From assembly GCA_963662405.2 (NCBI GenBank), contig CAXXKT010000001.1, forward strand, positions 2,656,001 through 2,720,000: 64,000 bases of DNA, read 5' to 3'. The DNA is from Syntrophales bacterium (GTDB lineage: Bacteria; Desulfobacterota; Syntrophia; Syntrophales; UBA2210). Under the pieces are notes generated by a model. The model searched no databases. It was not told the DNA's origin and was given only the letters and a program-made list of their open reading frames with translations. How positions within the stretch are numbered: the stretch's first letter is position 1; every line of letters starts with the position of its first letter. The position numbers and the translations under genes were made by a program. Shown piece after piece: positions 9,417 to 29,812 of the stretch.

Positions 9417-9450
9417 TAGGAACCCCCTTCCTTGTGTGGTATGGGTAAAA

Positions 9451-9467: not shown

Positions 9468-9469
9468 GT

Positions 9470-9982
9470 ATGTCAAGTAAAAAGTTAACAAAAGGGCAAG
9501 TTCAGGAGATCGTTGATCGAGCTTTAATCGAATTTGACCTGAAAAATGAGCGCGGACTAGCTGATATTCTTGAGATTTCCGAGCAGAACAAGACAAAGAG
9601 AAAAAACAGCGGCTCAATCGTTGGCTTGATTGAAAGGCAAGCTTACCGAAAAGGAAAAGATGTGTCTTTCATCCTCCACGGAATCAGACAGTCACCCTCG
9701 GCTCCTCAAAATGATCTCGATCCCGATCAGCACACATCTCCCGATGTTCCGAAGCTGCTGGCACAAACAACCAAAGTATTGTTATCGAAATCAGAATTTT
9801 CCAAAGCACTTGAAACAAATATTGTCGCATTTGCTCATGCTATTGATGCCATTGAAGACCTAGAGAAGACAAAAACGGATGTGCGCAATTTGACGCTACG
9901 CGTTTCTCAGGTCGAAAAACTACTTCTGGAAAGACAGGAGGATTGTGAGGAGAACGAAACCACTGGCGGTCAACCACAATAG
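9470..9982 (+). CDS. CI-like repressor (HTH + coiled coil, no obvious S24 peptidase)
   Basis: LKNERGLADILEISEQN..KRKNSGSI HTH; divergent from the Cro-like gene. Confidence 0.6.
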   Translation: MSSKKLTKGQVQEIVDRALIEFDLKNERGLADILEISEQNKTKRKNSGSIVGLIERQAYRKGKDVSFILHGIRQSPSAPQNDLDPDQHTSPDVPKLLAQTTKVLLSKSEFSKALETNIVAFAHAIDAIEDLEKTKTDVRNLTLRVSQVEKLLLERQEDCEENETTGGQPQ

Positions 9983-9987
9983 CTGTA

Positions 9988-10794
9988 TTGTGTATCATCC
10001 GTTTCATATCATTTAATCCTTACGAAAGGACAGGACTGTTGGGAAGGGGAATATTAAAATATTTTGGCCTAGCAGTGAGCATCATCATAGCAACTATCGC
10101 CATCATAGCAATAGGTGGTAGCGTTCATGTTCATTACCAAAAATCAATGATTCTCAGGCAAAACTATGCTGAGTTAAAACGTCACTATGCTGACAACAAC
10201 ACACAGGAATTCATCAAAGCGCTCACCTTCTTCCAGAGCAGAAACAAGCTCGACTATAAAGACGTGATACAGCTCAAACAAAATGTTGAAAGCAACCTTA
10301 ATCAAAAGATATCCACTCTCACAGAAAAAGACACACGTAAGAAAATAAACATTTACATTCAATTGTCACAGCTTGATCCCAGCAACAAAGCCTACTCCTC
10401 TATGGAAAGATATTTTCAGGCGGAACTGGCAAGACAAAATGCAGAAAAGGCACGGATGTTACAAAGGAAAGAGGAGATTGAGAGATCAAAAATCACCAAT
10501 GATCTCAAAAGATATTGGGATCTCTTGGAACAGTTGAAAGTAATTCCAACGTTAGTGAGAAAAATAGAAGGTGAGTCTGTTGGTGGTCAGGTAATAATTA
10601 CCGTTACCAACCCTTGGCACTACAAACCATACCAAGTCCGTCTACAAATGGCGCAGGGTCTTTGGGAAAAATGGGCCGGGATTCATTCGCCATCTAATCG
10701 AGATCGATCAAGGATAAAAATAGTTGATCTTCGTGGCAACGATGTTGGGGGGTCTGGTTGGCTGGGAGGATCATTGATAAAAGTAAAAGAATGA
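9988..10794 (+). CDS. Membrane-anchored hypothetical protein (lysogenic module)
   Basis: N-terminal TM helix, AT-rich, between repressor and integrase; start uncertain. Confidence 0.6.
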   Translation: MCIIRFISFNPYERTGLLGRGILKYFGLAVSIIIATIAIIAIGGSVHVHYQKSMILRQNYAELKRHYADNNTQEFIKALTFFQSRNKLDYKDVIQLKQNVESNLNQKISTLTEKDTRKKINIYIQLSQLDPSNKAYSSMERYFQAELARQNAEKARMLQRKEEIERSKITNDLKRYWDLLEQLKVIPTLVRKIEGESVGGQVIITVTNPWHYKPYQVRLQMAQGLWEKWAGIHSPSNRDRSRIKIVDLRGNDVGGSGWLGGSLIKVKE

Positions 10795-10861
10795 AACAAA
10801 GGCCTGGGTCCGATTTGCTCAGAAATGAGTTGAGCGATTAGAGAATACAGGAAGGGTTACA

Positions 10862-11983
10862 ATGTCAGTCCGGCAAATTGCCGAAGATAAATACATCATC
10901 GATTATTACCCGGACGGCCGGAAGGGGAAACGGGTTAGGAAGGTCTACACGTTGCCATCCCGCGAAGTCGCGGAAGCGATAGAGCGAGACCTGGTATCCC
11001 TGAATAAAAATAGCAAAACCTCTCAATCAGCGGGTCAGGCTACCATCGACAGTTTGTTTCCGACTTACCTGAAATGGTGTGAACAGCACAAACGTGAAAC
11101 AACAGTCACCGACATTGAAAGTGTATATACAAATCACATATCCCGAGTTTTGGGGGCTGTGACCGTTGAAAAATTGAGGGTAGGGCACATCAATATATAC
11201 AAGCGAATGCGGGCCGGAGAGAAAGCAATCCGGGGCGGGAAAATCAAGGGCATAAAAAGAGCCACTATGGTTTCAAACCGCACGATAATGAAGGAACTCT
11301 CATATCTGGCCAGTTTTCTCAAGTGGTGTCGGCGGGATATGGAAATGGAGATCAAACCGCTCTATATCGAAAAGCTCCCTCATGCCCGGCCGAAACCAAT
11401 TGTTCTATCACCGGAGGAAGTAGGGTCGATCTTGGTAAACCTGACGCCACTCCCGCGCGCCGTGGTCATGCTCCTCTATACCATGGGGCTCCGATTGACC
11501 GAGGCCACCTGCCTACGGTGGGAGGATGTGGACTTTTCAAATAACGTGCTCCGGGTAGTTCAGAAGGGAGGGACATGGAAGATCCTCCCCATGAACAAGT
11601 GGGCTGTTTGCGCCTTGCAGGGACTCCCACGATTGGGTGACTGGGTTTTTTACAGCCCAAGAACAAAGACACACATCTATGATATACGGAAGCCACTTGA
11701 GTCGGCACGGAAGGCTGCCGGGATAGACAAGAAGGTGAACCACCACCTTTTTCGACATTCGATAGCGACGCACCTTATGGGACTCAATGTCCAGACTCGG
11801 CTTATTCAGGAATATCTTGGTCATGCTGAGATAGGATCAACAGATTGGTACATGCATGTCAACATGGCGATTCTCGCAGGCGCAACACGTGGAGCATTTG
11901 ATTTTCTGGACGGCATACCTGGGCTTGCGGGGATGCTGACTACACAAAGCTTAGTAATTTCTGATATTTCTGAAGCAAAATGA
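10862..11983 (+). CDS. int: Tyrosine integrase of prophage A
   Basis: GLRLTEA (R), HLFRH, LGHA...TDWY catalytic residues; next to the att repeat. Confidence 0.93.
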   Translation: MSVRQIAEDKYIIDYYPDGRKGKRVRKVYTLPSREVAEAIERDLVSLNKNSKTSQSAGQATIDSLFPTYLKWCEQHKRETTVTDIESVYTNHISRVLGAVTVEKLRVGHINIYKRMRAGEKAIRGGKIKGIKRATMVSNRTIMKELSYLASFLKWCRRDMEMEIKPLYIEKLPHARPKPIVLSPEEVGSILVNLTPLPRAVVMLLYTMGLRLTEATCLRWEDVDFSNNVLRVVQKGGTWKILPMNKWAVCALQGLPRLGDWVFYSPRTKTHIYDIRKPLESARKAAGIDKKVNHHLFRHSIATHLMGLNVQTRLIQEYLGHAEIGSTDWYMHVNMAILAGATRGAFDFLDGIPGLAGMLTTQSLVISDISEAK

Positions 11984-12025
11984 CTACAGACCGCAAAATA
12001 GAATAATAATATCATATGTTATCTG

Positions 12026-12074
12026 GGGACTTCTAATCCGTAGGTCCCGGGTTCGAATCCCTGCTGGCGTACCA
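12026..12074 (+). repeat. att core, 3' half of tRNA-Arg(TCT); right junction of A and left junction of B
   Basis: GGGACTTCTAATCCGTAGGTCCCGGGTTCGAATCCCTGCTGGCGTACCA, identical to 31234-31282; anticodon loop CTTCTAA; no 5' half. Confidence 0.92.
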
Positions 12075-12575: not shown

Positions 12576-12727
12576 TTGACATAATATCTTCATGGGGTTA
12601 GTAGGTTATCAGTTTCGTGATTTGAGGAATATTAAATGTATTTTTGAACAGCTTTAGTGTGGGGGGATTATGGTCTGATCATCAAAGCCCTGTTTCTCAA
12701 ATTGAGAGATGGGGTTTTTATTTTTTG
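12576..12727 (+). promoter_or_regulatory. Promoter-leader-terminator element, copy 1 (ahead of array 1)
   Basis: TTGACA-N17-TA...GATTATGGTCTGA...AAGCCCTGTTTCTC/GAGAGATGGGGTTT + T tract. Confidence 0.7.
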
Positions 12728-12794
12728 TCATTGGATAGATTGAAAAGTTAAAACGGCGAAACAAAATTAATACGGGATGTCCTTGGTTATTAGG

Positions 12795-12815
12795 ATCCCA
12801 TAAACATTGTTGGGC
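12795..12815 (+). other. attI-like site 1
   Basis: CCCATAAACATT-G|TTGGGC; TTGGGC complements GCCCAA of the first attC; resembles attI1 CCCTAAAACAAAGTT. Confidence 0.7.
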
Positions 12816-12831
12816 ATGGAAGAGAAGAATT

Positions 12832-13269
12832 ATGATTGAGCACATCTTAATGGCCTTCATGTGGGTGCTCATCCCGGCCACACTCATCGCCACCCTCGTT
12901 CAAAGCGTACCTTGGACGGACAGAATGAAGAAGAACCTCCTGATGTTCTGTTTCATCCACCCTGGTTGGCTTTTCCCCGTAATCTTCCTTTCGGCTATAC
13001 ATATCGGTGGCTACGCAAGAACGGAGATATCCCCCATTCCGTGGCGCTCATTTTCACATGAACTCATGCTACACGACTTCGGTTCGGCTTGCTTCTCCTT
13101 CGCCACCGTGTCGACTGTCTCGTTGTGGTGCTTCTGGACGGGGGCAAACGCGTGGTTTCTTCATCACCCACAGATGGACAAAACGAAGAGGGTTATGGCG
13201 CATGTAATCAACTTGCTCTTCGGGCTCATTGTGACACAACCCGATAACCCGATTTACAGAATACTATAA
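12832..13269 (+). CDS. Cassette 1: small multi-pass membrane protein
   Basis: About 4 hydrophobic segments; followed by attC. Confidence 0.75.
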   Translation: MIEHILMAFMWVLIPATLIATLVQSVPWTDRMKKNLLMFCFIHPGWLFPVIFLSAIHIGGYARTEISPIPWRSFSHELMLHDFGSACFSFATVSTVSLWCFWTGANAWFLHHPQMDKTKRVMAHVINLLFGLIVTQPDNPIYRIL

Positions 13270-13271
13270 AT

Positions 13272-13330
13272 GCCCAACAACAGGCTTGACGGCACGCGAT
13301 AAACCGCGCCCGTCAACCTGAGCGTTAAAG
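13272..13330 (+). repeat. attC site 1 (59 bp)
   Basis: GCCCAAC...imperfect palindrome...GTTAAAG. Confidence 0.88.
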
Positions 13331-13349
13331 CTATAAGGAACAAGATGAT

Positions 13350-14102
13350 ATGAAGAGTCTTGGAGAACTCAATTTCTTGGAATACTTGGGACATGAGGAG
13401 CGTAACCTATTGAGCAGCATTGTCAACTGGAAGTCGGAATTCGACCTATTTTTCAATCTGGACAGAATATTTCAAGAACCACTCCGACGAATAACTGTGT
13501 CTTCTGGACCAGTGATTGTTTCCCAATTGTATCTATTTGTTCACTTTTATCTTTACTTTTCGGCAAGTTGTCTCTTTCGATGCCATCTTTCGGAGGCCTT
13601 TTCCTCCTTGAGAAAGGCCATTGATGCTTCTCTCTGTGCCTATAAGATGATTCTAAACCCAGAGAGCGAGCGCGCCTATTTAGAGCGGGACAAGTATTTT
13701 CAGTATATTAAGTCGAACATTCAAAGAGAAATCAAGAAAGATACATCCCTCTACCCTCTCGCCCACGAACTGATCTCCATTCATGACATGTGCAGCGAGT
13801 ATGGGTCGCACTCTGACATTAGCTCGTTTTTTCATCGGCTGGAACGGAAAGAAACAGAAGACGAAAAGAGCAACATGATCTTACTGTACTATTTTCAGTT
13901 TCCGAGAAACGAGGAAGAATTTCGATTCTACTACCTTTCCATGCTTCAGGCCTTCTACTCCATGTTCCTAATCTTTAAGCCATTCCTAAACGAGAACCTG
14001 AAAATAATAGACCCAAAGTGGGAATCAACTATTGATCATCTTGGTCCTTTGCTCAACAAACTAAGGAAGGCAAGCTATGAGAAATTCGGGAAGAACCCCT
14101 AA
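13350..14102 (+). CDS. Cassette 2: all-helical protein, DUF5677/HEPN-like
   Basis: EAFSSLRKAID and HDMCSEYGSH motifs. Confidence 0.55.
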   Translation: MKSLGELNFLEYLGHEERNLLSSIVNWKSEFDLFFNLDRIFQEPLRRITVSSGPVIVSQLYLFVHFYLYFSASCLFRCHLSEAFSSLRKAIDASLCAYKMILNPESERAYLERDKYFQYIKSNIQREIKKDTSLYPLAHELISIHDMCSEYGSHSDISSFFHRLERKETEDEKSNMILLYYFQFPRNEEEFRFYYLSMLQAFYSMFLIFKPFLNENLKIIDPKWESTIDHLGPLLNKLRKASYEKFGKNP

Positions 14103-14164
14103 CCAGTCGTTCCACCGGATCGGCGGGGAAAAGCAATCGCCTCCCGGTGAGCTCTTTATTAGCA
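14097..14164 (+). repeat. attC site 2 (core degenerate, ATT instead of GTT)
   Basis: CCCTAAC...CACCGG/CCGGTG stem...ATTAGCA; TTAGCA complements TGCTAA of the next attC. Confidence 0.75.
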
Positions 14165-14183
14165 AATTTAATGGAGTAGCAAA

Positions 14184-14864
14184 ATGATATGCCCACACTG
14201 CAATTGCAACTTTTGGGAAGACTGGACTGATTCAGATACACTTGTTTGGAATGATGAGAACATAGGGCAAGGTATCCAACATACTGCTTGCCCAAATTGT
14301 AATAGGCTCATTGTTAAAGTATATGAAGGAAAGGTTAATGTTCATGGTGAAGTGTTTGAAATAAATGATGATGACGAGTTGCCAGTTGATTATAGCGAGT
14401 TTTTGGTTTATCCGAATCAATCCAAATTAGAGCTTCCTGAAGAAATCCCGGAAAAATATAAAGCGGATTATATTGAAGCCATGGCCGTTGTTGAAATTAG
14501 CCCAAAGGCATCAGCCGCAATCAGTCGGCGTCTTTTGCAGAACCTCTTACAAGATGAGTTGGGAATTAAAGGGACAAATCTTTCAAGGCAAATCGATACA
14601 TTTTTAGAAACGCCCAACATACCTTCCCATCTGTCTAAATCTGTTGATGCTATCAGAAATATAGGGAATTTTGCTGCGCATCCGAATAAAGAAACAAAAA
14701 CTGGGGAACTAATCAACGTTGAACCAGGCGAGGCCGATTGGTTGCTTGAAGTTCTCTTATCTCTATTTGATTTTCAATTTATTCAACCAAAGAGAATTGA
14801 AAAGAGACGGAATGATTTAAACACAAAGCTGAGAAGCATGGGAAAACCCGAAATGAAGGGATAG
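14184..14864 (+). CDS. Cassette 3: DUF4145 (HEPN-like) protein with N-terminal Zn ribbon
   Basis: CPHC...CPNC; SPKASAAISRRLLQ; IRNIGNFAAH. Confidence 0.85.
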   Translation: MICPHCNCNFWEDWTDSDTLVWNDENIGQGIQHTACPNCNRLIVKVYEGKVNVHGEVFEINDDDELPVDYSEFLVYPNQSKLELPEEIPEKYKADYIEAMAVVEISPKASAAISRRLLQNLLQDELGIKGTNLSRQIDTFLETPNIPSHLSKSVDAIRNIGNFAAHPNKETKTGELINVEPGEADWLLEVLLSLFDFQFIQPKRIEKRRNDLNTKLRSMGKPEMKG

Positions 14865-14868
14865 TTTT

Positions 14869-14964
14869 TGCTAACCTAGCACTTCAAAAGAAAGCGAGGG
14901 CGGGGCGACCGTGCAAAATTGAATATCTGTATCGCCCTGACTTCTGGTGAGTTTACTGTTCGCA
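14869..14964 (+). repeat. attC site 3 (96 bp)
   Basis: TGCTAAC...GTTCGCA; stem partly degenerate. Confidence 0.65.
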
Positions 14965-14980
14965 GGAAAAGGTAACAAAA

Positions 14981-15700
14981 ATGTCTAGATTTTTAACAAC
15001 ATTTAGAGAACTTGAAAAAATTATACATTCTGAATACGCTTCTTTAGATTTAAAATGCTGGGAAGAGTATGAAATAGATAAAAAACATCCGCTTACATTT
15101 TTTACTGAAGAGATAAGAGATATTAGTCCAATTAATCCTTTTAATTGGTATGAATTTATCACAGAAATTGAATTCCTAAGTAAAGATTTAAAGTATTATA
15201 CGACTATTCTCTTTCTTTTAAGACCTTTTATAAATAACCCTTTACGAGAAGATAAAACATACTATCAAACGATTGAAGATAACAGATACATGAGTTATGT
15301 TAGTATGCTTTATCAGATTATTTATAATTATTGGGATAGACTGGGTGATTTTTTATTTTACTTCATTGAAACAGGGCTGAAGGAAAGAAATGTGTATTTC
15401 TCCACCGTAATAACAAGTATTTCCGAGGATTTTAAAGAATCAGTTAATTACCAAAAATTGTTGAAAATATATGTTGAGTATCTGAAAGAGCTTTTTGACA
15501 ATAGAAAAAACATTGTACATTACTTACAAATATCTGCAAAAATGTTTTCTGGAACATTTCTTCATCATAACGATGAAAAGAAACTTCTTGAAATGGAAAA
15601 AGAGAAAAACGGATATCCTGATTTTTTTCAAAAACACTTGGAACTAAGTTTGGAAGGATTTGAGTATTCTGTTAAACTTGTCAGTGAGTCGAAGACGTAG
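14981..15700 (+). CDS. Cassette 4: Cthe_2314-like HEPN protein
   Basis: YNYWDRLGDFL and NRKNIVH (RxxxxH). Confidence 0.75.
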   Translation: MSRFLTTFRELEKIIHSEYASLDLKCWEEYEIDKKHPLTFFTEEIRDISPINPFNWYEFITEIEFLSKDLKYYTTILFLLRPFINNPLREDKTYYQTIEDNRYMSYVSMLYQIIYNYWDRLGDFLFYFIETGLKERNVYFSTVITSISEDFKESVNYQKLLKIYVEYLKELFDNRKNIVHYLQISAKMFSGTFLHHNDEKKLLEMEKEKNGYPDFFQKHLELSLEGFEYSVKLVSESKT

Positions 15701-15712
15701 ATTTTGATTGCC

Positions 15713-15767
15713 TGCTAACCACAAAATTCGGGGGACGGATTCCCGCCCCTGATTTTAGGCGTTGCTG
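15713..15767 (+). repeat. attC site 4 (55 bp), last of array 1
   Basis: TGCTAAC-CACAAAATTCGGGGGACGG...CCGCCCCTGATTTTAGGC-GTTGCTG. Confidence 0.82.
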
Positions 15768-15806
15768 ATTACCAATTGATCTTGCCCCGAAAAAGTGGAC
15801 ACCCCA

Positions 15807-16655
15807 CTAAGTTACACACGCTTTTCGTTCAAACTCAGCGGGAGAGCAATAATTCAATGATGAATGTCTTCTAACGCAATTATAGAAAACTTCGATATAT
15901 TCGAATATGCTCCCGCGAGCTTCCTGTCTTGTCTGATACTTCTCAAAATAAACAAGCTCCGTCTTTAAGGTATGGAAAAACGATTCCATAAGAGCATTGT
16001 CGTAACAATTCCCCGAAGAGTTCATGCTCTGAATAAAACCATATTTCTCCATCAGCCCCTGAAAAGCATAGCTGGTATATTGAGTTCCACGATCTGAATG
16101 AAACATAACACCAGCTTTGGGTCGCCGCTGCCTGATCGCCTTGTGCAAGGCATCTGCAAGAATCTTATGACTCAATCTGTTATCCATCGACCATCCAATA
16201 ATCTTACGATTGAAAACATCCAGGATCGCTGCCAGATAAAGCCAACCCTCTCTCGTCCAAATAAGGGTAATATCAGAAACCCACACCTTGTTGGCCACAT
16301 CTGTCGAAAATCTCCGATTTAAAAGATTATCCGCCACTAAAAACTCATGCTTGGATTTTTTGGTGGCCTTGAACCTGCGTTTCGTCTTTGCCTTAATCCC
16401 ATGACTCTTCATCAGGTGAGCCACTCGTTTCCTGCTACACTTAATCCCGTGGGCCTGAAGTTCCGCTGTCACCCTCGGGCTACCATATGTGCCGCGACCC
16501 TTTATGAAAGCGTCCCGAATATACATCAGCAACCGCTCATTCTCTCTCTGGCGGTCACTCTTGCTGTGTTTCCCCCATATGTAATAACCGCTCCTGGATA
16601 CCCCCAGCACTCGGCACATCTTCTTCACCGAAAATTCGGAACGGTGATTTTCCAT
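15807..16655 (-). CDS. IS3 transposase OrfB (DDE)
   Basis: WVSDIT, HSDRGTQY, DNALMESFF; in -1 frame after the A7G slippery site near 16699-16706. Confidence 0.93.
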   Translation of the reverse strand: MENHRSEFSVKKMCRVLGVSRSGYYIWGKHSKSDRQRENERLLMYIRDAFIKGRGTYGSPRVTAELQAHGIKCSRKRVAHLMKSHGIKAKTKRRFKATKKSKHEFLVADNLLNRRFSTDVANKVWVSDITLIWTREGWLYLAAILDVFNRKIIGWSMDNRLSHKILADALHKAIRQRRPKAGVMFHSDRGTQYTSYAFQGLMEKYGFIQSMNSSGNCYDNALMESFFHTLKTELVYFEKYQTRQEARGSIFEYIEVFYNCVRRHSSLNYCSPAEFERKACVT

Positions 16656-16666
16656 GAACTCATACT

Positions 16667-16969
16667 TTACTTTGGGTGTTTCGAGAAGATGGCCAACGCT
16701 TTTTTTAAGATTTCCCTCTCCTCCCTTAAGCTCTCATTCTCCCGCCGCAACCGACGAAGTTCCTCCTCAGGTGCCTTCAAATGACCTTTCCCGGGAAAAG
16801 CTTGCTCCATGTCCGCCCGATATTTACGCCTCCACTGATGAAGCAGGTTTTTATGAACATTCAAATCCTTAGCTAGATCACTTACAGAACGTTTACCTTC
16901 ATCCATTAACCGAATCGCCTCATACTTAAACTCCCGATCAAAATACCGCTTATCCTTCCCATTAACCAT
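16667..16969 (-). CDS. IS3 transposase OrfA
   Basis: FDREFKYEA...HTH...EREILKKA; RBS GAGGAGG. Confidence 0.9.
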   Translation of the reverse strand: MVNGKDKRYFDREFKYEAIRLMDEGKRSVSDLAKDLNVHKNLLHQWRRKYRADMEQAFPGKGHLKAPEEELRRLRRENESLREEREILKKALAIFSKHPK

Positions 16970-17220
16970 GACATGCCTCCTCGTTACTCTATGTCTATAA
17001 GAGAAACTCTTCGGTATGTCCACTAAATCGGGGGAAGACCAAATAGTAATCTGCTACGAACAGGCCCATTCAAGTTTTGTTTGTTACAGGAAGAATCGCG
17101 CAGCAAAAGTATTTCTTGGACACTCCTACGGCGATCCTTCCACTCTTCACCTACAAACACTCAGAACAATGCCATAAGAAATTCATTGATTACTGATTGA
17201 AGGTTTCGCAGTGAAATCTC

Positions 17221-17368
17221 TTGACAATACGTCATCATAGAGTTACCTAAATCGTGGTTTTGATCTTGACATTTTTTATGCTTGTGCTGGCTGTACCAAT
17301 TAGGATTATGATCTGATCATTGAAAGCCCTGTTTCTCAAAAAGAGAGATGGGGCTTTTTTGTTTTTTT
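17221..17368 (+). promoter_or_regulatory. Promoter-leader-terminator element, copy 2 (ahead of array 2)
   Basis: TTGACA-N17-TA...GATTATGATCTGA...AAAGCCCTGTTTCTC/GAGAGATGGGGCTTT + T tract. Confidence 0.7.
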
Positions 17369-17556
17369 GGGCAACTTAGAAAATATCGGGGTTACGTGAA
17401 CGCGGAAAAGAGTATTACATAGTTTCTGTATAACACACCTCAATAAACGAAGGTTTTCATAATAATCTTTGTATTACAGTAAGTTGTAATGATTTTTTCC
17501 GCAATTGAAATATGTATTACGTAGCTGTTTCAGCTATGTTTGGTTTTTATACAGAA

Positions 17557-17578
17557 ACAATATAAACACTGTTGCTGC
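17557..17578 (+). other. attI-like site 2
   Basis: AATATAAACACT-G|TTGCTGC; shares ATAAACAYTG with site 1; GTTGCTGC nearly complements GCAGCTAAC of attC5. Confidence 0.68.
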
Positions 17579-17591
17579 ATAAGGAGTGACC

Positions 17592-18479
17592 ATGAAAATC
17601 CCCGTAAGCATAGAACCCGATGAAGAAGGTTATATTGGAAGAGAATGTCCAGTTTGTAAGAAATATTTTAAAGTTAAATTCGGTACTGGGTTGCATGGAG
17701 TGACTGATTGCTATTGCCCATATTGTAATCATAAAGATTCGCAAGATAATTTTTGGACAAGACAACAGATTGAATATGCAAAATCGATAGCCCTTAATCA
17801 AGTCACCAGTGATCTCCTGAAGAGCCTAAAAAAGTTAGAGCGTAGACCAAAACCAAATCAACTTATTTCTATCGGTATAACTGTCAAAGGACAACCAACA
17901 CCGATTATTTACTATTCCGAAGAAGAACTAGAGCAGAAGGTCACGTGTAATCAGTGTACTTTAGAATATGCTATTTATGGAGCATTTGGTTATTGCCCTG
18001 ATTGTGGCATTCATAATTCAAAGCAAATTGTATCTGCAAACTTTGATCTCATATTAAGAATTTTGGCATTATCAGTTAATGCGGAAGGTGACATCAAATC
18101 AAAGTTAATCGAAAACTCTCTAGAAGATGCAGTATCAGCCTTCGACGGTTTTGGCCGTGAACATTACTCAAGTGCATACCCCCAAATATCATTTCAAAGT
18201 ATATCGTTTGCTCAGACAAAAATTCTAACTGATTCCCAGGTTGATATATCTTCTGGCTTGTCTCCAAAGGAATGGGATTTTGTAGTGGAGCAATTTCAGA
18301 AAAGGCACTTGATAGCACACAAAATGGGTATAATCGATGACGAGTTTATAAGAAAAACTGGAACATCATCTTCTTTGGTTGGTAGGAAGGTTTCAATTAC
18401 AGAAGAAGATGTCCGAAAATTTATTTCTTATTTGTTGGTCATAACAGATAATTTACTTACAGGTATTCCACGCAGCTAA
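17592..18479 (+). CDS. Cassette 5: multi-CxxC Zn-binding protein with C-terminal HEPN-like motif
   Basis: CPVC, CPYC, CNQC, CPDC; KRHLIAH (RxxxxH); RBS TAAGGAG. Confidence 0.7.
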   Translation: MKIPVSIEPDEEGYIGRECPVCKKYFKVKFGTGLHGVTDCYCPYCNHKDSQDNFWTRQQIEYAKSIALNQVTSDLLKSLKKLERRPKPNQLISIGITVKGQPTPIIYYSEEELEQKVTCNQCTLEYAIYGAFGYCPDCGIHNSKQIVSANFDLILRILALSVNAEGDIKSKLIENSLEDAVSAFDGFGREHYSSAYPQISFQSISFAQTKILTDSQVDISSGLSPKEWDFVVEQFQKRHLIAHKMGIIDDEFIRKTGTSSSLVGRKVSITEEDVRKFISYLLVITDNLLTGIPRS

Positions 18480-18532
18480 CAACAGCATCCAGACCGACGC
18501 GCTACGTGCGCGGCTGATGCTGAGCGTTCGGT
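18474..18532 (+). repeat. attC site 5 (59 bp)
   Basis: AGCTAAC-AACAGCATCCAG...CTGATGCTGAGC-GTTCGGT. Confidence 0.88.
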
Positions 18533-18545
18533 TTAGATAAAAACT

Positions 18546-19103
18546 ATGCCTCTAAATCATACATCTCAGTTTTCTGAATTAACAGACAAGCAATTTAACC
18601 TAATTGGCAAAATTGTGGTTGAATGGGCCAATGTCGAATTTATGCAAAAACTAATATTAAGCAGGCTTCTATTTTCGGCGGAATTCATTAGTCGGACATA
18701 TACAGATCGAATGAGTGCCGTGAGGATTCAGGACGCAATAAAGGAATCCGTTGATCTTCATCGTCACAGATACTGCGGAGAGATCATAAGTGAAGACATA
18801 TTGTCTGAAATTGAAAAAGTGAATAATGAAGTTCATGATGCAAGAGCACATAGAAATAGATTCGCACACTTTTGCTGGACTCGTAACACAGATGAAGAAA
18901 TTTTTGGTACAAATTTTTCTGCAGGTTTACCAGGTAGCAAAAAATATAGAAAATCCGACATTGTTATAACGAACAAAGAGTTGGAACAGCTCTATAAGGA
19001 ATCATATAATTTGGTGGATAAAATCAATCAACTCATTGAGAAGCTTCCAGAGATTGAGGAAGATGATTTAACAAAAAGACCAAAAACCGAACAACGGCAT
19101 TAA
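18546..19103 (+). CDS. Cassette 6: HEPN-like helical protein
   Basis: IGKIVVEWANVE; HRNRFAH (RxxxxH). Confidence 0.65.
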   Translation: MPLNHTSQFSELTDKQFNLIGKIVVEWANVEFMQKLILSRLLFSAEFISRTYTDRMSAVRIQDAIKESVDLHRHRYCGEIISEDILSEIEKVNNEVHDARAHRNRFAHFCWTRNTDEEIFGTNFSAGLPGSKKYRKSDIVITNKELEQLYKESYNLVDKINQLIEKLPEIEEDDLTKRPKTEQRH

Positions 19104-19148
19104 GGGAGGCGGCACAAAAGCCGCCGCGCCTTATGCCGGGCGTTCGAC
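19086..19148 (+). repeat. attC site 6 (63 bp)
   Basis: ACCGAAC...CGGCATTAAGG/CCTTATGCCG...GTTCGAC; AAACCGAAC exactly complements the cassette start GTTCGGTTT. Confidence 0.88.
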
Positions 19149-19163
19149 ACTATAGGAGAAACG

Positions 19164-20723
19164 ATGAAAACTCTAAAATTACGAGATCTTCAGATAGGTA
19201 ATATTGATGCAAAAAATGAGCTTCTCACTGGTTCAGAACAAGAAATTGATTTTTTCCGCAAGGGCTTCTGTCTTCCACCTAATATAGTGCTCCAGGATTT
19301 TTTAGGTTCAAAAAAATATTATGTGACAGGCTTAAAGGGAATCGGAAAAACAGCACTCTTAAGATATATAGCACTTGAAGCTGAAAGACAGTTTGGTGCC
19401 ACATGTTCATTTATCTTGTTTAAGAGCGATGTAAAAGAGCAAGATCGTAAAGACATCTGTCGCGTCGCTAGGGCCGAATTAATTGAAAAAAATCTCGAAG
19501 ATTATGATGGAAATGATTTTGAAGTTGTTTGGAAATGGTTTTTGCATAGAAAGATAGTTGATACTATTCGAGAATGTAATTTAAAGTTATTTCAAGATGA
19601 CGACAATTTTAGAAAATATGAGAAGTGTGTAACCGCTCCAAAACTTGATGAAAAATCATCCGGGATTAAACGACTAATACCCAACCTAAAAAAGGGTTCT
19701 ATAGAAATTAGTGAAAATCCGAAGATTGGTTTGGATTTTGATTGGGAGGATAAAGGTAAAACTCGTGTTAAGTTTCATAGTCTAACCAAACAAGCTGATC
19801 AACTTTTTCAGGAATTAAGGCCAGCAGATGGACACCTTCGTCTGTTTTTAGATGAATTGGAATTAAGCTTAGGCTCCCAAAAACAGTATAAAAGAGATGC
19901 AACCCTGATCAGAGATTTGATTATAGCTGTTGAGCAAATCAATTCAGTTGCAAAAAAAATGAGATATAACTTAACCATCTATGCTGGAATTCGTTCTGAA
20001 GTTCTTTCCGCAATTGAATCAGTCGGTAAAGAAATAAACAAAATTATTGGTGATTTCGGAAGCCAAATTGTATGGCATCAGTCCGGTTCTGATAATGAAA
20101 ACCACCCGTTGCTCAACATCATTGTTCAGAGAATATCTATCTCGGAAAACACTAATAAATCAGAGCGTGGCAACCTAAAATCTATAATTTGGAATAAATA
20201 TTTTCCAATATCAATTCAGGGAATTAAGTCCGAGAAATATATCCTTCACAATTCATGGTATCGACCTAGGGATATGGTTCGACTTCTTAATCTGGCAAGG
20301 GATCAATTCCCTGATGTAAGTGGGTTCACTCAAAGAGTTTTCGATGGAACACGAAAGCAATACAGTCAAGAAAGCTGGATAGAATTAGCAGAGGAATTAA
20401 GTGTCAAATATTCTCAACAAGAATTAGTCGCCATTCAACAGATATTCAATGGATATAAAAGAGAATTTTCTTTTATAGACCTTCAGGGTCATATCGAAAA
20501 AAGGCGGAAATTATATCCTGCTGTTGATAAGGCTCTGGTATCACATGCAATTGGCGAAATATTAACTGATTTATACAATATTGGATTTGTAGGTAATGTA
20601 ATTTACTCGGGTAGGAGAGGAATTAGTCCTAAAATGCGCTTTAGCTTTAGAGGTGATCCCAATTTGATTATAGAAGAAAAGATCACTGTACATAAAGGTT
20701 TGTATTCCTTTTTTACATTATGA
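19164..20723 (+). CDS. Cassette 7: P-loop ATPase (Sll1717/FunZ-like)
   Basis: IGNIDAKNE, GLKGIGKT Walker A, LFLDELE Walker B, RPRD. Confidence 0.75.
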   Translation: MKTLKLRDLQIGNIDAKNELLTGSEQEIDFFRKGFCLPPNIVLQDFLGSKKYYVTGLKGIGKTALLRYIALEAERQFGATCSFILFKSDVKEQDRKDICRVARAELIEKNLEDYDGNDFEVVWKWFLHRKIVDTIRECNLKLFQDDDNFRKYEKCVTAPKLDEKSSGIKRLIPNLKKGSIEISENPKIGLDFDWEDKGKTRVKFHSLTKQADQLFQELRPADGHLRLFLDELELSLGSQKQYKRDATLIRDLIIAVEQINSVAKKMRYNLTIYAGIRSEVLSAIESVGKEINKIIGDFGSQIVWHQSGSDNENHPLLNIIVQRISISENTNKSERGNLKSIIWNKYFPISIQGIKSEKYILHNSWYRPRDMVRLLNLARDQFPDVSGFTQRVFDGTRKQYSQESWIELAEELSVKYSQQELVAIQQIFNGYKREFSFIDLQGHIEKRRKLYPAVDKALVSHAIGEILTDLYNIGFVGNVIYSGRRGISPKMRFSFRGDPNLIIEEKITVHKGLYSFFTL

Positions 20724-20734
20724 GTGTAAAAAAT

Positions 20735-20807
20735 GTCGAACATCAGCTTGGAGAAGGATACTCATTACGCTGCGCTTCATTCGCACCTCTCAAGCTGGGC
20801 GTGAGAT
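20735..20807 (+). repeat. attC site 7 (73 bp; core GTG instead of GTT)
   Basis: GTCGAAC-ATCAGCTTGGAGAAGG...CCTCTCAAGCTGGGC-GTGAGAT. Confidence 0.85.
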
Positions 20808-20820
20808 TTCGGAGGAAGAT

Positions 20821-21150
20821 ATGGCACTACCTAGCTATAAGGATATCGTCGAACTCCTTAAGAAGGGAGCAACGATTGAGGCTCAAGAAAAGATTATGGA
20901 GCTCCGCGAAGCAGCTCTTGCGCTTCAAGAGGAGAACATTAATTTAAAAAACAAGGTCTTGGAGCTCCAGGGAAAAGTTCGTAAATTAGAATCATTTGAA
21001 GGTGAGCCATGTCCTAAATGTCGAAAACCAGCTTGGGTTGTGGAGTCAAGCAAGCCGGACAGTACGCTTGGTGACCTAGGTGTTATCCGTCGAGTTTATC
21101 GCTGCACTGAATGCGGGTTCTCCGAATCACAATTGGTGACGCCAAAATGA
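20821..21150 (+). CDS. Cassette 8: small coiled-coil + Zn-ribbon protein
   Basis: AQEKIMELREAALALQEEN; CPKC...CTEC; RBS GGAGG. Confidence 0.75.
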   Translation: MALPSYKDIVELLKKGATIEAQEKIMELREAALALQEENINLKNKVLELQGKVRKLESFEGEPCPKCRKPAWVVESSKPDSTLGDLGVIRRVYRCTECGFSESQLVTPK

Positions 21151-21151
21151 A

Positions 21152-21214
21152 ATCTAACCCCACGGTCAATCGGGACGCGCCAAAAGCGGCGCGCCCCTTA
21201 CCTTCACGTTAGGC
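21152..21214 (+). repeat. attC site 8 (63 bp)
   Basis: ATCTAAC...GGGACGCGCC/GGCGCGCCCC...GTTAGGC. Confidence 0.85.
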
Positions 21215-21439
21215 TAAATTTTAAGTCTCATGCAATTATTACTTAATGTTAGCGTATTTTGACCCGATTATGCGAATCCAGTTTGTCGGTTACAATTGAA
21301 ATGGCAATGATCACACGGTTATTGTTGCCGCCGTGGCATGCCTTGCTGTTTGGCAATTTTTGGATAAGCAGGAAAAGGCAACCGTCACAGATGGTGGGCA
21401 ATAATCGATAAAATAGCGTATAGCCAAGCTTGGCGGAAT

Positions 21440-23935
21440 ATGAGTAACGATTTAATAAGAAACAACCATTACGTCCCTATTTGGTATCAAAAGAATTTCT
21501 TATCTTCAAAGAAAGCGGCTTTCCATTACCTCAACCTTTATCCGGATAAAATTGAATTACCTAACGGCAAAGTAAATTTTAAAAATCAGATATGTTGGCC
21601 ATTCTCTCCTAAACAGTGTTTCTATCAAACTGATTTATACACGACTTCTTTTCTGGGTTATCGAAACGACGAAATCGAACGTTACCTTTTTGGTAAAATA
21701 GATAGCGATGGATCAATAGCCATTAAAGCATTAATGGACCTGAATTATCGTTTATTCCATGACTACTTTCTCAAAGTTTTTGAATACATGGATATTCAAA
21801 AGCTTAGAACACCCAAAGGACTAACATGGTTAAGTCAAAAGTTTTCAATGATTACCCATAATCAGCTTTTGTTTGAGATGCAGAAGATACGAAGGCTGCA
21901 TTGTACATTATGGGCAGAAGCTGTGAAAGAAATTGTTTTGGCCAATAATTCCAAGATAAAGTTTATCGTGTCCGACCATCCAGTGACAGTCTATAATGCG
22001 GCTTGTCCGCCCAACTCAACTGAATGCAAATATCCAAACGACCCTAGAATTGAAATGCAGGGAACACAAACGATTTTCCCTCTGGATTCCAATCGATGTC
22101 TAATTTTAACAAATTTGGATTATGCTAAAAACCCCAGTTTGCAGAACCTTAAAAAATATAGACCAAATCCAAATCCTTTTCGAAACACAATGATCAGATA
22201 TGATAACATCATTAATGAGAGAGAATTATCAGAAGATGATGTTGCGCATATCAACTGGATAATTAAGTCTCGCGCATCACAATATTTAGCTGCCGAAGAA
22301 AAGGAGTGGCTATTCCCAGAAAACAGGGTTTGTCCCGATTGGGCCAAATGCGGTCAAGTGCTAATACCTCCCAGTAATAAGCTTTATAAATTTGGAGGTG
22401 AGATATACGTTGGATACGAAGATGGTTCATCTGCATACTTTGACCAATATGGACGAAGAGAACCAGAATCGGAATTTTTAAGGAAAAAGCAAAAAGCTGG
22501 AAAAATAGGAGCAAATGACCCTTGCCCATGCGGAAGCGGAAAAAAATATAAGAAATGTTGCAGAGATAAACCTGTTGATGAACGGCCCGCCAGTGACGTT
22601 CTAAGTATTCGTGAGCGCAACCTATTTTTTCTCGACATCGTTACAGGAATTTTGGGGGTGAATAGGAGCGGAGACTTAGACTGGGATGAGCTACGTAGAA
22701 ATTTAACCAATGAAAAAATTGCAGAGATATATAAGGCGGTCGCAGCATTATGGCCGCCATCTACTGATTTATTTGCACTTCTCCCAAGACCAGACTCTAA
22801 TGTCCTGAGAGCTTTGTTTACAGGTATAATTGACCCACGTGTGACGTATATAAGCATGGCCTGTTTTTCCTTTTATGCAGACGAGATTTTAGTTCAAAGT
22901 CCTTTTGCAAACCCACACAACATGAGGGAAGAATTTAATCCTATAAAAAACCCTGGGAAATATAGGGATGAAACAATAAAAAACCTGTTTTTCTTATTTT
23001 TAATAATTCCGTGGATTGAAATTGGCGTGATTAATTTATTCCCAGACCCGTGGAATTTTAATTTCGCATTGATGGAGACCGTTATGGAGGCAGCTGAAAA
23101 AAGGAAAGATTCGATAACCTTCGATGAAAAATCATTCAAACAAATGGAAAAATTGTTCTTTGAAGACTATAAACGAACTTTATTCACAATGCCGGATAAA
23201 AACCTTCGGGCTTTTATTCGCCATACATCTCAAGACCTCTCAGAAGAAGAAATATCTAAGCTTATCGAATATACTAAACGAATGAATGCTCAAGATCCGC
23301 TTGTGGATCTGAATCCTGATAAGCCAGGAAAAGAATCAAGCCAGATGCTAATATCACGCACAACTCCAAACATGGAAATGACAATGCTTCTGGCACAAGC
23401 AACTGGTTCAATGATAATAACAGACAATTCTTTCAGGTGGTTTGAAATATGCTCATCAATTCCTTACTACTATGGCCTCAGCAAAAACCCCTGGGCTAAA
23501 TTTGAAACCTTCGCATCTGATTATCCTGTTCAGTTTCCATTGATCGTTGAACAACTATCCCACATGCAGGAGCTAAAGAAATCAGAATTCATGTCTGTAA
23601 AGAGGGTGCTAAAACGATTGTGGAATTCCATTAATGCGGATCAGGCACCAGATAATGCTCAGATTGATCATTTGCAAGAGGAGTTTGATATCGCTCAAGA
23701 GGTAATGTCTAAATCAATCGAAAAATTGGTCCAAAAAGGTGAAAAGGCTACCGACACATCTCCTTACCCAAGGCCAATGAACATAGACGCAAAATTGAGT
23801 TGCAAAATATCACCGATTGGGCATATCAATAATTTGGTATATCGATTATTGATAAGCTATGCGGGACATGATAAGTACCTTAAATCGCTTCCATTGTCTC
23901 TGTATGTAGAATATGGAAACAAGGAGAGAGCCTAA
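21440..23935 (+). CDS. Cassette 9: DUF4238 + SEC-C motif protein (831 aa)
   Basis: NHYVPIWYQKNF, FIVSDHPV, IFPLDS; KIGANDPCPCGSGKKYKKCC. Confidence 0.82.
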   Translation: MSNDLIRNNHYVPIWYQKNFLSSKKAAFHYLNLYPDKIELPNGKVNFKNQICWPFSPKQCFYQTDLYTTSFLGYRNDEIERYLFGKIDSDGSIAIKALMDLNYRLFHDYFLKVFEYMDIQKLRTPKGLTWLSQKFSMITHNQLLFEMQKIRRLHCTLWAEAVKEIVLANNSKIKFIVSDHPVTVYNAACPPNSTECKYPNDPRIEMQGTQTIFPLDSNRCLILTNLDYAKNPSLQNLKKYRPNPNPFRNTMIRYDNIINERELSEDDVAHINWIIKSRASQYLAAEEKEWLFPENRVCPDWAKCGQVLIPPSNKLYKFGGEIYVGYEDGSSAYFDQYGRREPESEFLRKKQKAGKIGANDPCPCGSGKKYKKCCRDKPVDERPASDVLSIRERNLFFLDIVTGILGVNRSGDLDWDELRRNLTNEKIAEIYKAVAALWPPSTDLFALLPRPDSNVLRALFTGIIDPRVTYISMACFSFYADEILVQSPFANPHNMREEFNPIKNPGKYRDETIKNLFFLFLIIPWIEIGVINLFPDPWNFNFALMETVMEAAEKRKDSITFDEKSFKQMEKLFFEDYKRTLFTMPDKNLRAFIRHTSQDLSEEEISKLIEYTKRMNAQDPLVDLNPDKPGKESSQMLISRTTPNMEMTMLLAQATGSMIITDNSFRWFEICSSIPYYYGLSKNPWAKFETFASDYPVQFPLIVEQLSHMQELKKSEFMSVKRVLKRLWNSINADQAPDNAQIDHLQEEFDIAQEVMSKSIEKLVQKGEKATDTSPYPRPMNIDAKLSCKISPIGHINNLVYRLLISYAGHDKYLKSLPLSLYVEYGNKERA

Positions 23936-24002
23936 CATCAGCTTGGAGAAGGATACTCATTTCGCTGCGCTCCACTCGCACCTCTCAAGCTGCGCGTTAC
24001 TG
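23930..24002 (+). repeat. attC site 9 (73 bp), last of array 2; near-identical to attC7
   Basis: GCCTAAC...GTTACTG; AGCCTAAC complements the cassette start GTTAGGCT. Confidence 0.88.
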
Positions 24003-24087
24003 ATTACGAAAAGAAATATACTATCATTCGGTCCCAATTGGTTCCCTTGAGTACAGGAAGCAGTGCTTGCCATACTTTCCACTCTCA

Positions 24088-24476: not shown

Positions 24477-25016
24477 TCAGAAGGGCCTTATCCGGTTCAT
24501 AATCTCCTTGCTTTCAAGATACATCATATTGTCCCGTGTAACCGGAACATTCATTTCCCGGCCAACATCACGAATCGCATTTTCGATCGCGATGATTTCA
24601 GCACCAAGATCGTCAAGGCGCCGATTAAAAATCTCCTCTTGGGATCGCCGATACCTCGCGACTATTGTGTGAAGATCCCGTTTTAGATCCTCTTCAATCG
24701 GGTTGGCCTGTGTTTCCAGATCGGGGAGAATATCGTCTGATATTTCAGTAACCCACCGTTCCACACTTTGGAGACTTGCTGTTAGGCGTATCTCTTCCTG
24801 ATGCAAAGCCTCCGGATCGTTACCTTTGAGGATTGCATTTTTCATTTCGCCACGAACCTTCCTCAGCTCTTCCGTCAGTGCTTTCTTCTTTGCCTCAGCT
24901 TCTGCCAGATGCTTCCGTGCATTGCCTTCCTGCTTCCTCAGGCTTTCCCGCGTTTTGAGAAGGTTGTTAAATTCCTTATTCCCACCGATGATCTCTTTCA
25001 ATTTGTTTTGGTTCAT
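24477..25016 (-). CDS. Coiled-coil hypothetical protein (satellite late module)
   Basis: RBS AAGGAG; heptad-rich. Confidence 0.7.
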   Translation of the reverse strand: MNQNKLKEIIGGNKEFNNLLKTRESLRKQEGNARKHLAEAEAKKKALTEELRKVRGEMKNAILKGNDPEALHQEEIRLTASLQSVERWVTEISDDILPDLETQANPIEEDLKRDLHTIVARYRRSQEEIFNRRLDDLGAEIIAIENAIRDVGREMNVPVTRDNMMYLESKEIMNRIRPF

Positions 25017-25047
25017 GTGTCATTGCTCCTTTAATTTAGTAGTTTGA

Positions 25048-25326
25048 TTATTTAGCCGCTACGGCCATGTTGTGCTGATCGTGATACTTCTCAAAAACGA
25101 GCGGGAGCACATCTTCCCCGCCGGCGGCGATCCGGTCTTGATACTTTGCATACAGTCCGGGATATCGCTTCCGGGCTTCAAGAAGGGCATCTTGCCGGGA
25201 CATACCCCGTCCGTAAAAATGCCCAACGGCGATTTCATAGAATTCATGTTCTCCGCCCTGAACTTTCCATTTCTGGTACATCTCCTTGACTGCTTCGTTT
25301 AGTGTATTCCTTTCCCTGTCATTCAT
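25048..25326 (-). CDS. Hypothetical protein (92 aa)
   Basis: RBS GGAGGT before ATG 25326. Confidence 0.65.
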   Translation of the reverse strand: MNDRERNTLNEAVKEMYQKWKVQGGEHEFYEIAVGHFYGRGMSRQDALLEARKRYPGLYAKYQDRIAAGGEDVLPLVFEKYHDQHNMAVAAK

Positions 25327-25340
25327 GTCTCTCCACCTCC

Positions 25341-25721
25341 TTAAGGGTTTATGTGCTCTCGAATTAAGGCCGCTATAACGCGGGACAAATCTTGATAGTC
25401 CTGGTTTTCTTTTTGAAAGGTTTGCACCTCCGGCAATAGAGCGCTGGCATCTCTGTACTTTTTCGGATTCAAATGCTGTGCAAATGCAATACAAATTCCC
25501 GCGTTGTATGAGGTAAGCAACCCGTGGATCTCATCGGGTGGGTTTGTTTTGTAATTTTGAAGCCAATCCCAGCATTCATCAGGGTCAAAAAGCCATGCAA
25601 CACCGCGGCCTCCTTTAACCCGGTACGGCATGCCCGCCCGGAGATATCTGTTAAGCGTGAACATGGAACATTCCAGTTCGTCGCACAAATGCTGCTTGTT
25701 CATTAACCCTTCAGTTTCCAT
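25341..25721 (-). CDS. Terminase small subunit-like (lambda Nu1-type winged HTH)
   Basis: MNKQHLCDELECSMFTLNRYLRAGMPYRVKGGRGVAWLFDPDECWDW resembles the Nu1 N-terminus; directly downstream of the cos-like site. Confidence 0.65.
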   Translation of the reverse strand: METEGLMNKQHLCDELECSMFTLNRYLRAGMPYRVKGGRGVAWLFDPDECWDWLQNYKTNPPDEIHGLLTSYNAGICIAFAQHLNPKKYRDASALLPEVQTFQKENQDYQDLSRVIAALIREHINP

Positions 25722-25844
25722 GAGAAGTAAGCTCCTTTCCCTCTGTGATTTTTTCAGACGCGAGGTTTCCAGGGAAAAAATGTTTTTTTATCCCCCCACA
25801 GATATTATGATTTGCAAGGGGTTAAAAATTGTTCTGTACCTAGG

Positions 25845-25902
25845 TGAAAATCGGGGGTCTGTGCTCCGTATAGGACCCCTTATCCCAGGAAGGACCCGTA
25901 AA
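25845..25902 (-). other. Lambda-like cos site of island B
   Basis: Minus strand TTTACGGGTCCTT (13 nt identical to the lambda cosQ context); GGGTCCT-N20-TACG-GAGCACAGACCC-CCGATTTTC. Confidence 0.7.
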
Positions 25903-25995
25903 ATAATGACCCGACAATTCTGATTGTGAAACCCATGCAAAAAGCCCCGGCAGCGTACAGAAGTAGTTCAATCGCTGTTTTCATTTTTCCCCCAC

Positions 25996-29807: not shown

Positions 29808-29812
29808 GCTTA

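Follow-up and report, generated by a model that had tools for sequence, protein, structure and literature searches.

The locus considered here raises the question of how two neighbouring arrays of integron gene cassettes, lying on an integrated element of a Syntrophales bacterium with no integron integrase (IntI, gene intI) encoded beside them, are supplied with cassettes and spread. The window, by which we mean the whole 64,000-nucleotide stretch analysed, covers C1:2656001-2720000 of the source genome (labelled G000; 3.8 Mb in three contigs), and positions given without a contig refer to it. Taken as a whole, and with the mechanistic steps proposed below, the explanation that we consider probable is that these are two adjacent arrays without intI, each headed by a primary recombination site (attI), and that both are cargo of a 19.2-kb element inserted at a tRNA-Arg gene.

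Two arrays headed by attI sites

Nine open reading frames (ORFs) on the + strand each have a 3' imperfect palindrome of 55-96 nt (..AAC to GTT..), which starts 0-13 nt after the ORF or overlaps its stop codon. These palindromes are numbered as cassette recombination sites (attC) in the following list; the vertical bar in attI sequences marks the crossover.

12785-12811, + strand: attI of array 1, type C-like, ..AGGATCCCATAAACATTG|TT, crossover after G12809
12810-15761, + strand: array 1, four cassettes (12810-13324, 13325-14158, 14159-14958, 14959-15761)
12832-13269, 13350-14102, 14184-14864, 14981-15700, + strand: ORFs of array 1
13272-13330, 14097-14164, 14869-14964, 15713-15767, + strand: attC1 to attC4
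15762-15773, + strand: flank at the end of array 1, TTGCTGATTACC, putative right half of the original attI
17412-17573, + strand: attI region of array 2, type B, core ACAGAAACAATATAAACACTG|TT, crossover after G17571
17572-23996, + strand: array 2, five cassettes (17572-18526, 18527-19142, 19143-20801, 20802-21208, 21209-23996)
17586-18479, 18546-19103, 19164-20723, 20821-21150, 21440-23935, + strand: ORFs of array 2
18474-18532, 19086-19148, 20735-20807, 21152-21214, 23930-24002, + strand: attC5 to attC9
23997-24017, + strand: flank at the end of array 2, TTACTGATTACGAAAAGAAAT; an identical flank lies at C1:1951936 and a related one at C1:1944440

An earlier reading of this DNA, made from the letters alone (hereafter the sequence-only reading), had described nine genes, each with an attC-type site, in arrays of four and five, and this description is borne out. 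Seven of the attC sites are canonical, the degenerate ones being attC2 and attC3. Bottom strands of attC1, 4, 5, 6, 8 and 9 fold with an R box, an unpaired spacer, an L box and bulged bases; in attC7, which is 94% identical to attC9, the L box and inner stem alone pair and the crossover reads GTG. Both degenerate sites fold weakly, attC2 having ATT in place of GTT at its crossover and attC3 being an atypical site of 96 nt with long spacers.

A signature of integron recombination is that the first heptamer of a cassette is complementary to the R'' box of its own attC. The same reading had pointed to such complementarity, which holds at 29 of 36 variable positions (four per cassette, nine cassettes), a value reached by none of 100,000 permutations of the heptamer pairings (mean 15.6, standard deviation 2.6). 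As aligned, cassette 5 contributes none of its four positions, and a one-base insertion makes its heptamer fit. Two covariance models were used, R1 built from all nine sites of the window and R2 built from array 2 alone. R2 finds attC1 (27.6 bits) and attC4 (14.7 bits) with exact ends, that is, two of the four sites of array 1, together with one off-target of 19.3 bits at 40613-40664, and R1 scores nothing higher than 14.3 bits in the window outside the nine sites. Chance palindromes or plain terminators, as another reading of the attC sites, are made improbable by the heptamer permutations, by the specificity of R1 in the window and by its strand agreement at attI-like sites elsewhere in the genome (given below). 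The off-target corresponds to a lone hairpin at 40613-40665 on the - strand (14.2 bits with R1, 19.3 bits with R2), far from the arrays and probably chance or a terminator.

Both arrays open with the site ATAAACAYTG|TT, the crossover G being at 12809 and 17571, and each opens behind a copy of a common leader, as had been read from the letters. The type B region contains three direct GTATTAC repeats (0.011 expected), and window positions 17409-17573 match, at 94% identity, the 165 bp 3' of the stop codon of a frameshifted intI in the same genome (C1:30431-30595), a region that ends in ..ACAGAAACAATATAAACACYG|TT and is followed by attC sites. The genome also has an intact intI, whose attI, ..GATCCGTATAAACATTG|TT, is separated from the gene by an insertion of the IS3 family of insertion sequences (IS). 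attI-like sites of this kind lie 3' of intI at 164 nt in the source genome, 175 nt in G005 and 173 nt in G012, and in G019 (C94) at 166 nt after a 3' remnant of intI. Three attI types share the ATAAACAYTG|TT core, two of them tied to IntI. Because they are homologous to sites beside bona fide intI genes, both sites of the window can be taken, on sequence comparison, as genuine attI sites. Within the type B region, about 30 nt before the crossover, a 9-pair hairpin with a T-rich run (17519-17539, + strand) is also conserved beside the frameshifted intI and is a candidate second terminator or integrase-binding palindrome.

The far ends of the arrays agree with this reading of their heads. The motif TTRCTGATTAC closes three arrays, namely both in the window and the one ending at C1:1951936, as the attI reconstruction in the sequence-only reading predicts, and it is putatively what the oldest cassette should retain of the right half of the ancestral attI. 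An 11-nt similarity of the array-end flank to the anticodon arm of tRNA-Thr was judged to be chance, as about two random matches are expected.

Four of the cassettes have recognisable cargo. Cassette 3 matches DUF4145 and the PD-T7-4 anti-phage protein (E 7e-23; Pfam, PADLOC), cassette 5 is PDC-M14A-like (E 6e-23), cassette 7 encodes a Sll1717-family P-loop ATPase (262 bits), and cassette 9 has DUF4238 with a SEC-C motif. Cassettes 1, 2, 4, 6 and 8 gave no family match in the scans run. For the protein of cassette 6, the species-genome collection yields a single relative (45% identity), which is encoded in a metagenome-assembled genome of Acidobacteriaceae and has no attC beside it.

Distant integrases, dispersed attI sites and a shared leader

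The claim that neither the island nor the window holds an intI or a remnant of one stands. The two recombinases of the window score 91 and 41 bits against TIGR02249, for which the cut-off is 265 bits; a tblastn search of the window with the genome's IntI (E <= 10) returns just these two, at 29% and 24% identity, and no intI remnant near the arrays. The closer of the two aligns to IntI about 46 residues short and is without the IntI-specific insertion. The window holds no complete integron, in which intI stands beside the array, and its arrays classify as CALINs (clusters of attC sites lacking an integron integrase).

A search of the rest of the genome, which the sequence-only reading had recommended, found an intact intI at C1:2211990-2212934 (471 bits over the full TIGR02249 model), 444 kb from the arrays, which could act in trans. 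The frameshifted paralogue at C1:31553-30608, whose attI matches that of array 2, is 82% identical to the intact copy over residues 1-173 and 66% over residues 163-343. Both genes have cassettes downstream on the same strand. Judged by gene layout, the integrons of this lineage belong to the inverted-integrase type: intI, an attI some 170 bp downstream of it and then the cassettes all lie on one strand. In the resident integron, the IS3-family element at C1:2212975-2214235 lies between the intact intI and attI. The resident array (C1:2214382-2227657) mixes homogeneous 109-bp attC repeats with heterogeneous shorter sites, the first 109-bp repeat being an ORF-less unit right at attI. Rfam searches around the intI loci gave nothing at E <= 0.01.

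The attI sites of the window belong to a larger set. The sequence ATAAACAYTGTT occurs 10 times in the source genome against a chance expectation of about one, and looser variants add a few more; there are about ten dispersed attI sites, with at least nine further intI-less attI-like sites besides those of the window. At C1:131249, 158267, 236414, 245939, 306604 and 1947680, the attI-like site is followed by attC-like sites that R1 detects on the predicted strand, the matches behind 158267 and 245939 being below 15 bits and at noise level. Altogether R1 detects 25 further sites behind other attI-like sites, 24 of them on the strand that attI predicts, and this holds for all 13 that reach at least 17 bits. 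Among the R1 sites, 12 lie behind the intact intI, each in the expected orientation, and four behind the frameshifted one; the whole-genome search scored 150 of 691 candidates and is not a census. Type C-like attI sites occur in 6 of the 37 other family genomes (0 matches for a reversed control pattern), and IntI in 12 of 38. In G020 (C2:439800-440700), the first position behind a type B attI is occupied by a gene for a 290-aa tyrosine recombinase, followed by what may be the start of an IS91-type transposase.

Each attI of the window is preceded by the leader, whose two copies are laid out as follows.

12576-12726, + strand: leader copy 1, with TTGACA (12576-12581), Shine-Dalgarno GGGGGG, mini-ORF ATG GTC TGA (12670-12678), and terminator with T-run (12684-12726)
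17075-17368, + strand: conserved upstream block and leader copy 2, with TTGACA (17221-17226), mini-ORF ATG ATC TGA (17308-17316) and terminator (17322-17368)

The terminator hairpins (12684-12718 and 17322-17358; 16 pairs and a T-run) are the two strongest terminator-like sites between 12000 and 24500. The proposal that a promoter-leader element opens each array holds as far as both arrays share it; its assignment to an integron module does not, as it belongs to a family with 39 copies in the source genome, of which 8 by pattern, or 10 by eye, precede attI, and the others precede unrelated, mostly low-GC genes. The family is present in 18 of the 24 family genomes searched. TTGACA appears in most rows of the 39-copy alignment; the 28 copies in the fold alignment were chosen by requiring it, and their count says nothing on its conservation. 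The succession of Shine-Dalgarno sequence, ATG-NNN-TGA, 6-7 nt, 15-16-pair hairpin and T-run is found in 29 of the 39 copies by pattern, and in one more by eye. In these copies the ATG and TGA are invariant, and the middle codon is GTC, GCC, ATC, GAC or GTA. Middle-codon changes would break the sole small hairpin that could otherwise account for the conservation, and the terminator stem shows compensated changes. Rfam finds tRNA alone in the window at the gathering score, and no family reaches threshold on the leader. The same mini-ORF/terminator design, in a different sequence, stands upstream of both intI genes of the source genome, and a copy of the family type upstream of intI in G019.

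By analogy with known leaders, we infer that this one acts as a ribosome-dependent transcription attenuator. On the explanation preferred here, transcription into each array would cross the leader, where the two-codon mini-ORF ends 6-7 nt before the intrinsic terminator; if a ribosome stalled on the mini-ORF, it would occupy the hairpin base and so permit read-through, and the mostly defence-type cargo would then be expressed upon disturbed translation. The intact chromosomal IntI would insert circular cassettes at the attI sites of the window (attI x attC) and excise them by attC x attC, in both cases in trans, and the island would carry the loaded arrays between hosts.

Several further observations concern the leader and its relatives. 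The upstream regions of the intI genes, L001 (G000:C1:2211690-2211990), L003 (C1:31930-31640, - strand) and L068 (G019), carry a promoter-like TTGACA, a two-codon mini-ORF (ATG AAC TAA, ATG ATC TGA and ATG GAC TGA) and an intrinsic terminator. After the intI terminator comes a CACTTCC box complementary to the Shine-Dalgarno region of intI (GGAAGTG), and the sequence suggests that intI may be controlled by attenuation and by sequestration of its Shine-Dalgarno region. The window has a third leader copy at 51762-51954 (+ strand), with the mini-ORF stop codon lost, ahead of a 359-aa ORF with a hydrophobic N-terminus. Other leader sites include C1:242332, 396286, 872705, 1518611 and 1520046, and the family precedes, among others, two high-GC paralogues for secreted proteins. 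An IS110-family element (DEDD_Tnp_IS110 and Transposase_20; C1:158540-159800, L049 1796-2764) ends just 5' of the leader start CTACTACTGCTC, and the identical end point is found upstream of leader copies at C1:306363, C1:1415781 and C2:343146, four places in total, which suggests that the element targets CTACTACTGCTC.

A number of results weigh against loading by the resident integrase and against the leader as a switch. The attI of array 2 has the frameshifted copy as its cognate integrase, and cross-use by the intact paralogue is assumed; for type C, the attI of array 1, no intI-linked example was found in the source genome. R2, the model that leaves array 1 out, fails to recover attC2 and attC3, so that array 1 may in part be frozen. 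None of the window's cassettes has a second copy elsewhere in the genome and none is shared between platforms, and the loading in trans that had been proposed from the letters is kept here as a step that we infer. No recombination product was seen. Among the public sequencing runs none of RNA is listed, and the joints in the three DNA runs (one sample, low-depth contigs) lie within repeats and are uninformative as to excision. A simple sigma-70 consensus scan calls no promoter at 12576 or 17221, where the -10 element is non-consensus and the candidates are poor; an antiterminator fold was sought in the leader and none identified; and the intI orthologue of G005 has ACG at the position of the mini-ORF ATG. 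Also, G020, G006, G007, G011 and G050 carry attI-like sites or platforms and have no intI match at E <= 1e-60, and platforms therefore persist without a resident integrase.

Given these points, it has to be asked whether each platform is the fossil of a complete integron that lost its intI, now static cargo. We consider this unlikely. The two degenerate attC sites missed by R2, the IS3 element between the arrays, the frameshifted type B integrase of the genome and the lack of any cassette in common with other arrays are what such decay would leave; loss of intI and IS-driven rearrangement are among the origins listed for CALINs by Cury et al. (2016, PMC4889954), and G019:C94 has its 3' remnant of intI ahead of an attI. 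Beside either array of the window, however, tblastn at E <= 10 shows no intI fragment, and an intact IntI exists in the genome. The canonical form of seven of the nine attC sites and the nearly intact heptamer complementarity also speak against this reading, and the leader-attI junction, which recurs in the source genome (8 by pattern) and in other genera (G020, G006 and G011), looks like a propagated unit and not like the outcome of independent decay.

The carrier island

The arrays lie in a low-GC tract from about 9 to 31 kb of the window (0.32-0.50, compared with about 0.55-0.60 outside). Between 49-bp direct repeats is the 19.2-kb element, which comprises both arrays, an IS3 element, small ORFs, a PrimPol-helicase, an AAA+ protein and a tyrosine integrase. 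The tRNA-Arg gene is found intact 42 kb left of the island, at C1:2626343-2626419.

12026-12074, + strand: attL, left 49-bp direct repeat, 3' half of tRNA-Arg(TCT), a perfect repeat of 31234-31282
15777-17041, - strand: IS3-family insertion sequence between the two platforms (Pfam rve and HTH_Tnp_1), ends read from sequence
16667-17023 and 15807-16655, - strand: orfA and orfB of the IS3 element, which has imperfect terminal inverted repeats and a 3-bp AAT target duplication
24477-31003, - strand: island core as a whole
24477-25016, - strand: coiled-coil ORF, island core
25048-25494 and 25341-25721, - strand: small ORFs, island core
25996-27600, - strand: PrimPol-helicase, island core
27594-27836 and 27833-28099, - strand: small ORFs, island core
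28440-29807, - strand: sigma-54-type AAA+ protein with a helix-turn-helix (HTH) domain, island core
29813-31003, - strand: tyrosine integrase, island core
31234-31282, + strand: attR, right 49-bp direct repeat, followed by tRNA-His at 31295-31371

The closest relatives of the island's PrimPol are in G018 (68% identity) and G050 (61% identity), and at both loci attC, attI and leader are all absent within 20-36 kb of context; R1 has 0 matches across 70 kb of array-free island DNA from relatives. Beside a PrimPol homologue in G020 (48% identity), a leader, a type B attI and two attC sites are found 2 kb away. Since the closest PrimPol relatives are without arrays, the arrays are accessory cargo, and they recur in this family of PrimPol islands.

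The sequence-only reading placed the arrays on a phage satellite, as a dedicated landing pad that travels in capsids with the help of a helper phage. We doubt this, and the evidence for satellite status is thin: it consists of a small island with regulators, an integrase with att sites (the 49-bp repeats), its own PrimPol-helicase, and one small ORF with a weak match to phrog_57 (small terminase, TerS; E 1.2e-4, residues 4-60), which may be TerS- or HTH-like. Also in its favour is the element in tandem at the same tRNA, with its gpA-type large terminase, D5-type primase and methyltransferase. The Pfam scan of the TerS-like ORF is without a match, however, and in the protein atlas it falls closest to prophage and HTH proteins, a terminase family being assigned to just 20% of the members of one cluster. 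Among the island proteins the searches gave no capsid, portal or size-redirection gene and no clear terS, an integrase with a primase fits an integrative mobilisable element equally well, and the leader is genome-wide and not part of a pad module.

The tandem element is a second integrated element of 41.6 kb at the same tRNA-Arg site (C1:2626343-2668025), and window positions 1-12025 are its right end. It has several genes of defence type and encodes the gpA-type large terminase, the D5-type primase-helicase (1905-4331), the DNA methyltransferase, AbiEi, an SMC-like ATPase, a UvrD-type helicase and DUF488 proteins. A tyrosine recombinase of its own (10862-11983) and three copies of the leader complete the list. 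The island array is flanked by a second copy of tRNA-His, in which changes in the T arm are compensated.

It is very improbable that the type C attI sites, that of array 1 included, are served by a pair of Xer-like tyrosine recombinases (390 and 298 aa) and not by IntI: two paralogous pairs (59-66% identity) lie divergently beside type C attI sites in a layout resembling classical intI/attI, one at C1:131360-133328 with a gene start about 100 bp from attI and one at C1:160050-161853, about 1.8 kb from attI beyond a leader and an IS110 element, and in G047 a related motif lies some 200 bp 5' of the orthologue, but an attI-like motif occurs within 1.5 kb at just one of seven orthologue loci of relatives, the common core joins type C to the two attI types tied to IntI, and the pairs are without the IntI-specific insertion (73-120 bits against TIGR02249, cut-off 265).

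Related systems and implications

The closest known systems are CALINs, and the arrays of the window can be described as CALINs that kept an attI. About half of published CALINs are in genomes that encode IntI elsewhere and 38% have a neighbouring IS; their mobilisation in trans by a resident IntI has been proposed, and attI is called unknown for most integrons (Cury et al., 2016, PMC4889954). The window conforms in having at least two attC sites on the same strand and no intI within reach. It differs in that attI is identifiable, one per array, and in that the genome has about ten attI heads, most of them behind a conserved terminator leader. The layout of the resident integrons resembles that of the inverted-integrase integrons of the Treponema type, which likewise have intI and cassettes in one orientation with attI downstream of intI, a group reported as paraphyletic in the same source.

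The sequence-only reading knew of no description of such an architecture, and here it has to be corrected, since a phage-derived element, a Shewanella prophage, has already been published as the carrier of a CALIN that has an attI of its own (Qi, 2023, PMC9892861). In that element, M16-3, an integrase-less array likewise starts at a lineage-specific attI of the same type as one beside a real intI, on a phage-derived carrier. The intI of M16-3 is on the same element, whereas the arrays of the window are 444 kb from theirs, and the window has two tandem pads, a small PrimPol island as the carrier and a regulatory leader before each attI.

For the leader, the nearest parallel is the vmlR leader of B. 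subtilis, in which a three-codon upstream ORF, uORF(MIN), and a terminator respond to ribosomes stalled at initiation, the identity of the upstream ORF being loosely constrained and its translation initiation essential (Takada et al., 2022, PMC9226507). The two leaders share a Shine-Dalgarno sequence, an upstream ORF of very few codons and an intrinsic terminator ahead of the gene, which in vmlR is inducible. Unlike vmlR, this leader has an upstream ORF of two sense codons that abuts the terminator, for which a direct steric block is the simplest model, and forms a 39-copy family before many unrelated genes, attI sites and intI. With regard to the cargo, a preprint describes integron cassettes as stores of anti-phage defence genes in sedentary chromosomal integrons with their own integrase (10.1101/2024.07.02.601686). 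Single-gene cassettes matching defence families (PD-T7-4, PDC-M14A, P-loop ATPase) are a point of likeness, whereas the cassettes of the window ride a mobile island without its own integrase. In the portions of the literature covered, including part of a review of integron regulation (PMC8876359), we found no case of about ten attI heads around one intact integrase, of tandem attI-headed arrays on a small PrimPol island, of a mini-ORF/terminator leader shared by pads and intI, or of such a leader as a translation-stress switch for integrons, although searches of this kind do not prove an absence.

Two features stand out here, the dispersed attI pads and the leader with its mini-ORF. The usual picture of an integron has a single integrase and a single attI, classical integrons are controlled by the SOS response, and CALINs are regarded as orphan stores of cassettes, of unknown attI and doubtful expression. 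Given that the attI sites of the window are shared with sites beside real intI genes, attI is readable here. It can be speculated, tentatively and as a possibility that we would not favour, that the organism has a distributed integron, in which one IntI would serve about ten pads on the chromosome, on two large secondary replicons and on islands. In such a system intI and the pads would be gated by the mini-ORF attenuator, within a regulon of about 39 members; capture and expression would be triggered by ribosome stalling, as in phage takeover or exposure to ribosome-targeting antibiotics, and not by SOS; and islands would export loaded pads to hosts that perhaps have no integrase.

Whether a single IntI can load many dispersed pads in trans, whether mobile islands ferry loaded pads into integrase-free hosts and whether orphan arrays are expressed all become directly testable with a readable attI. 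The mini-ORF and terminator before intI, before the attI pads and before about 30 other operons suggest a translation-stress switch, which may govern both integron activity and a set of mostly acquired, defence-type genes.

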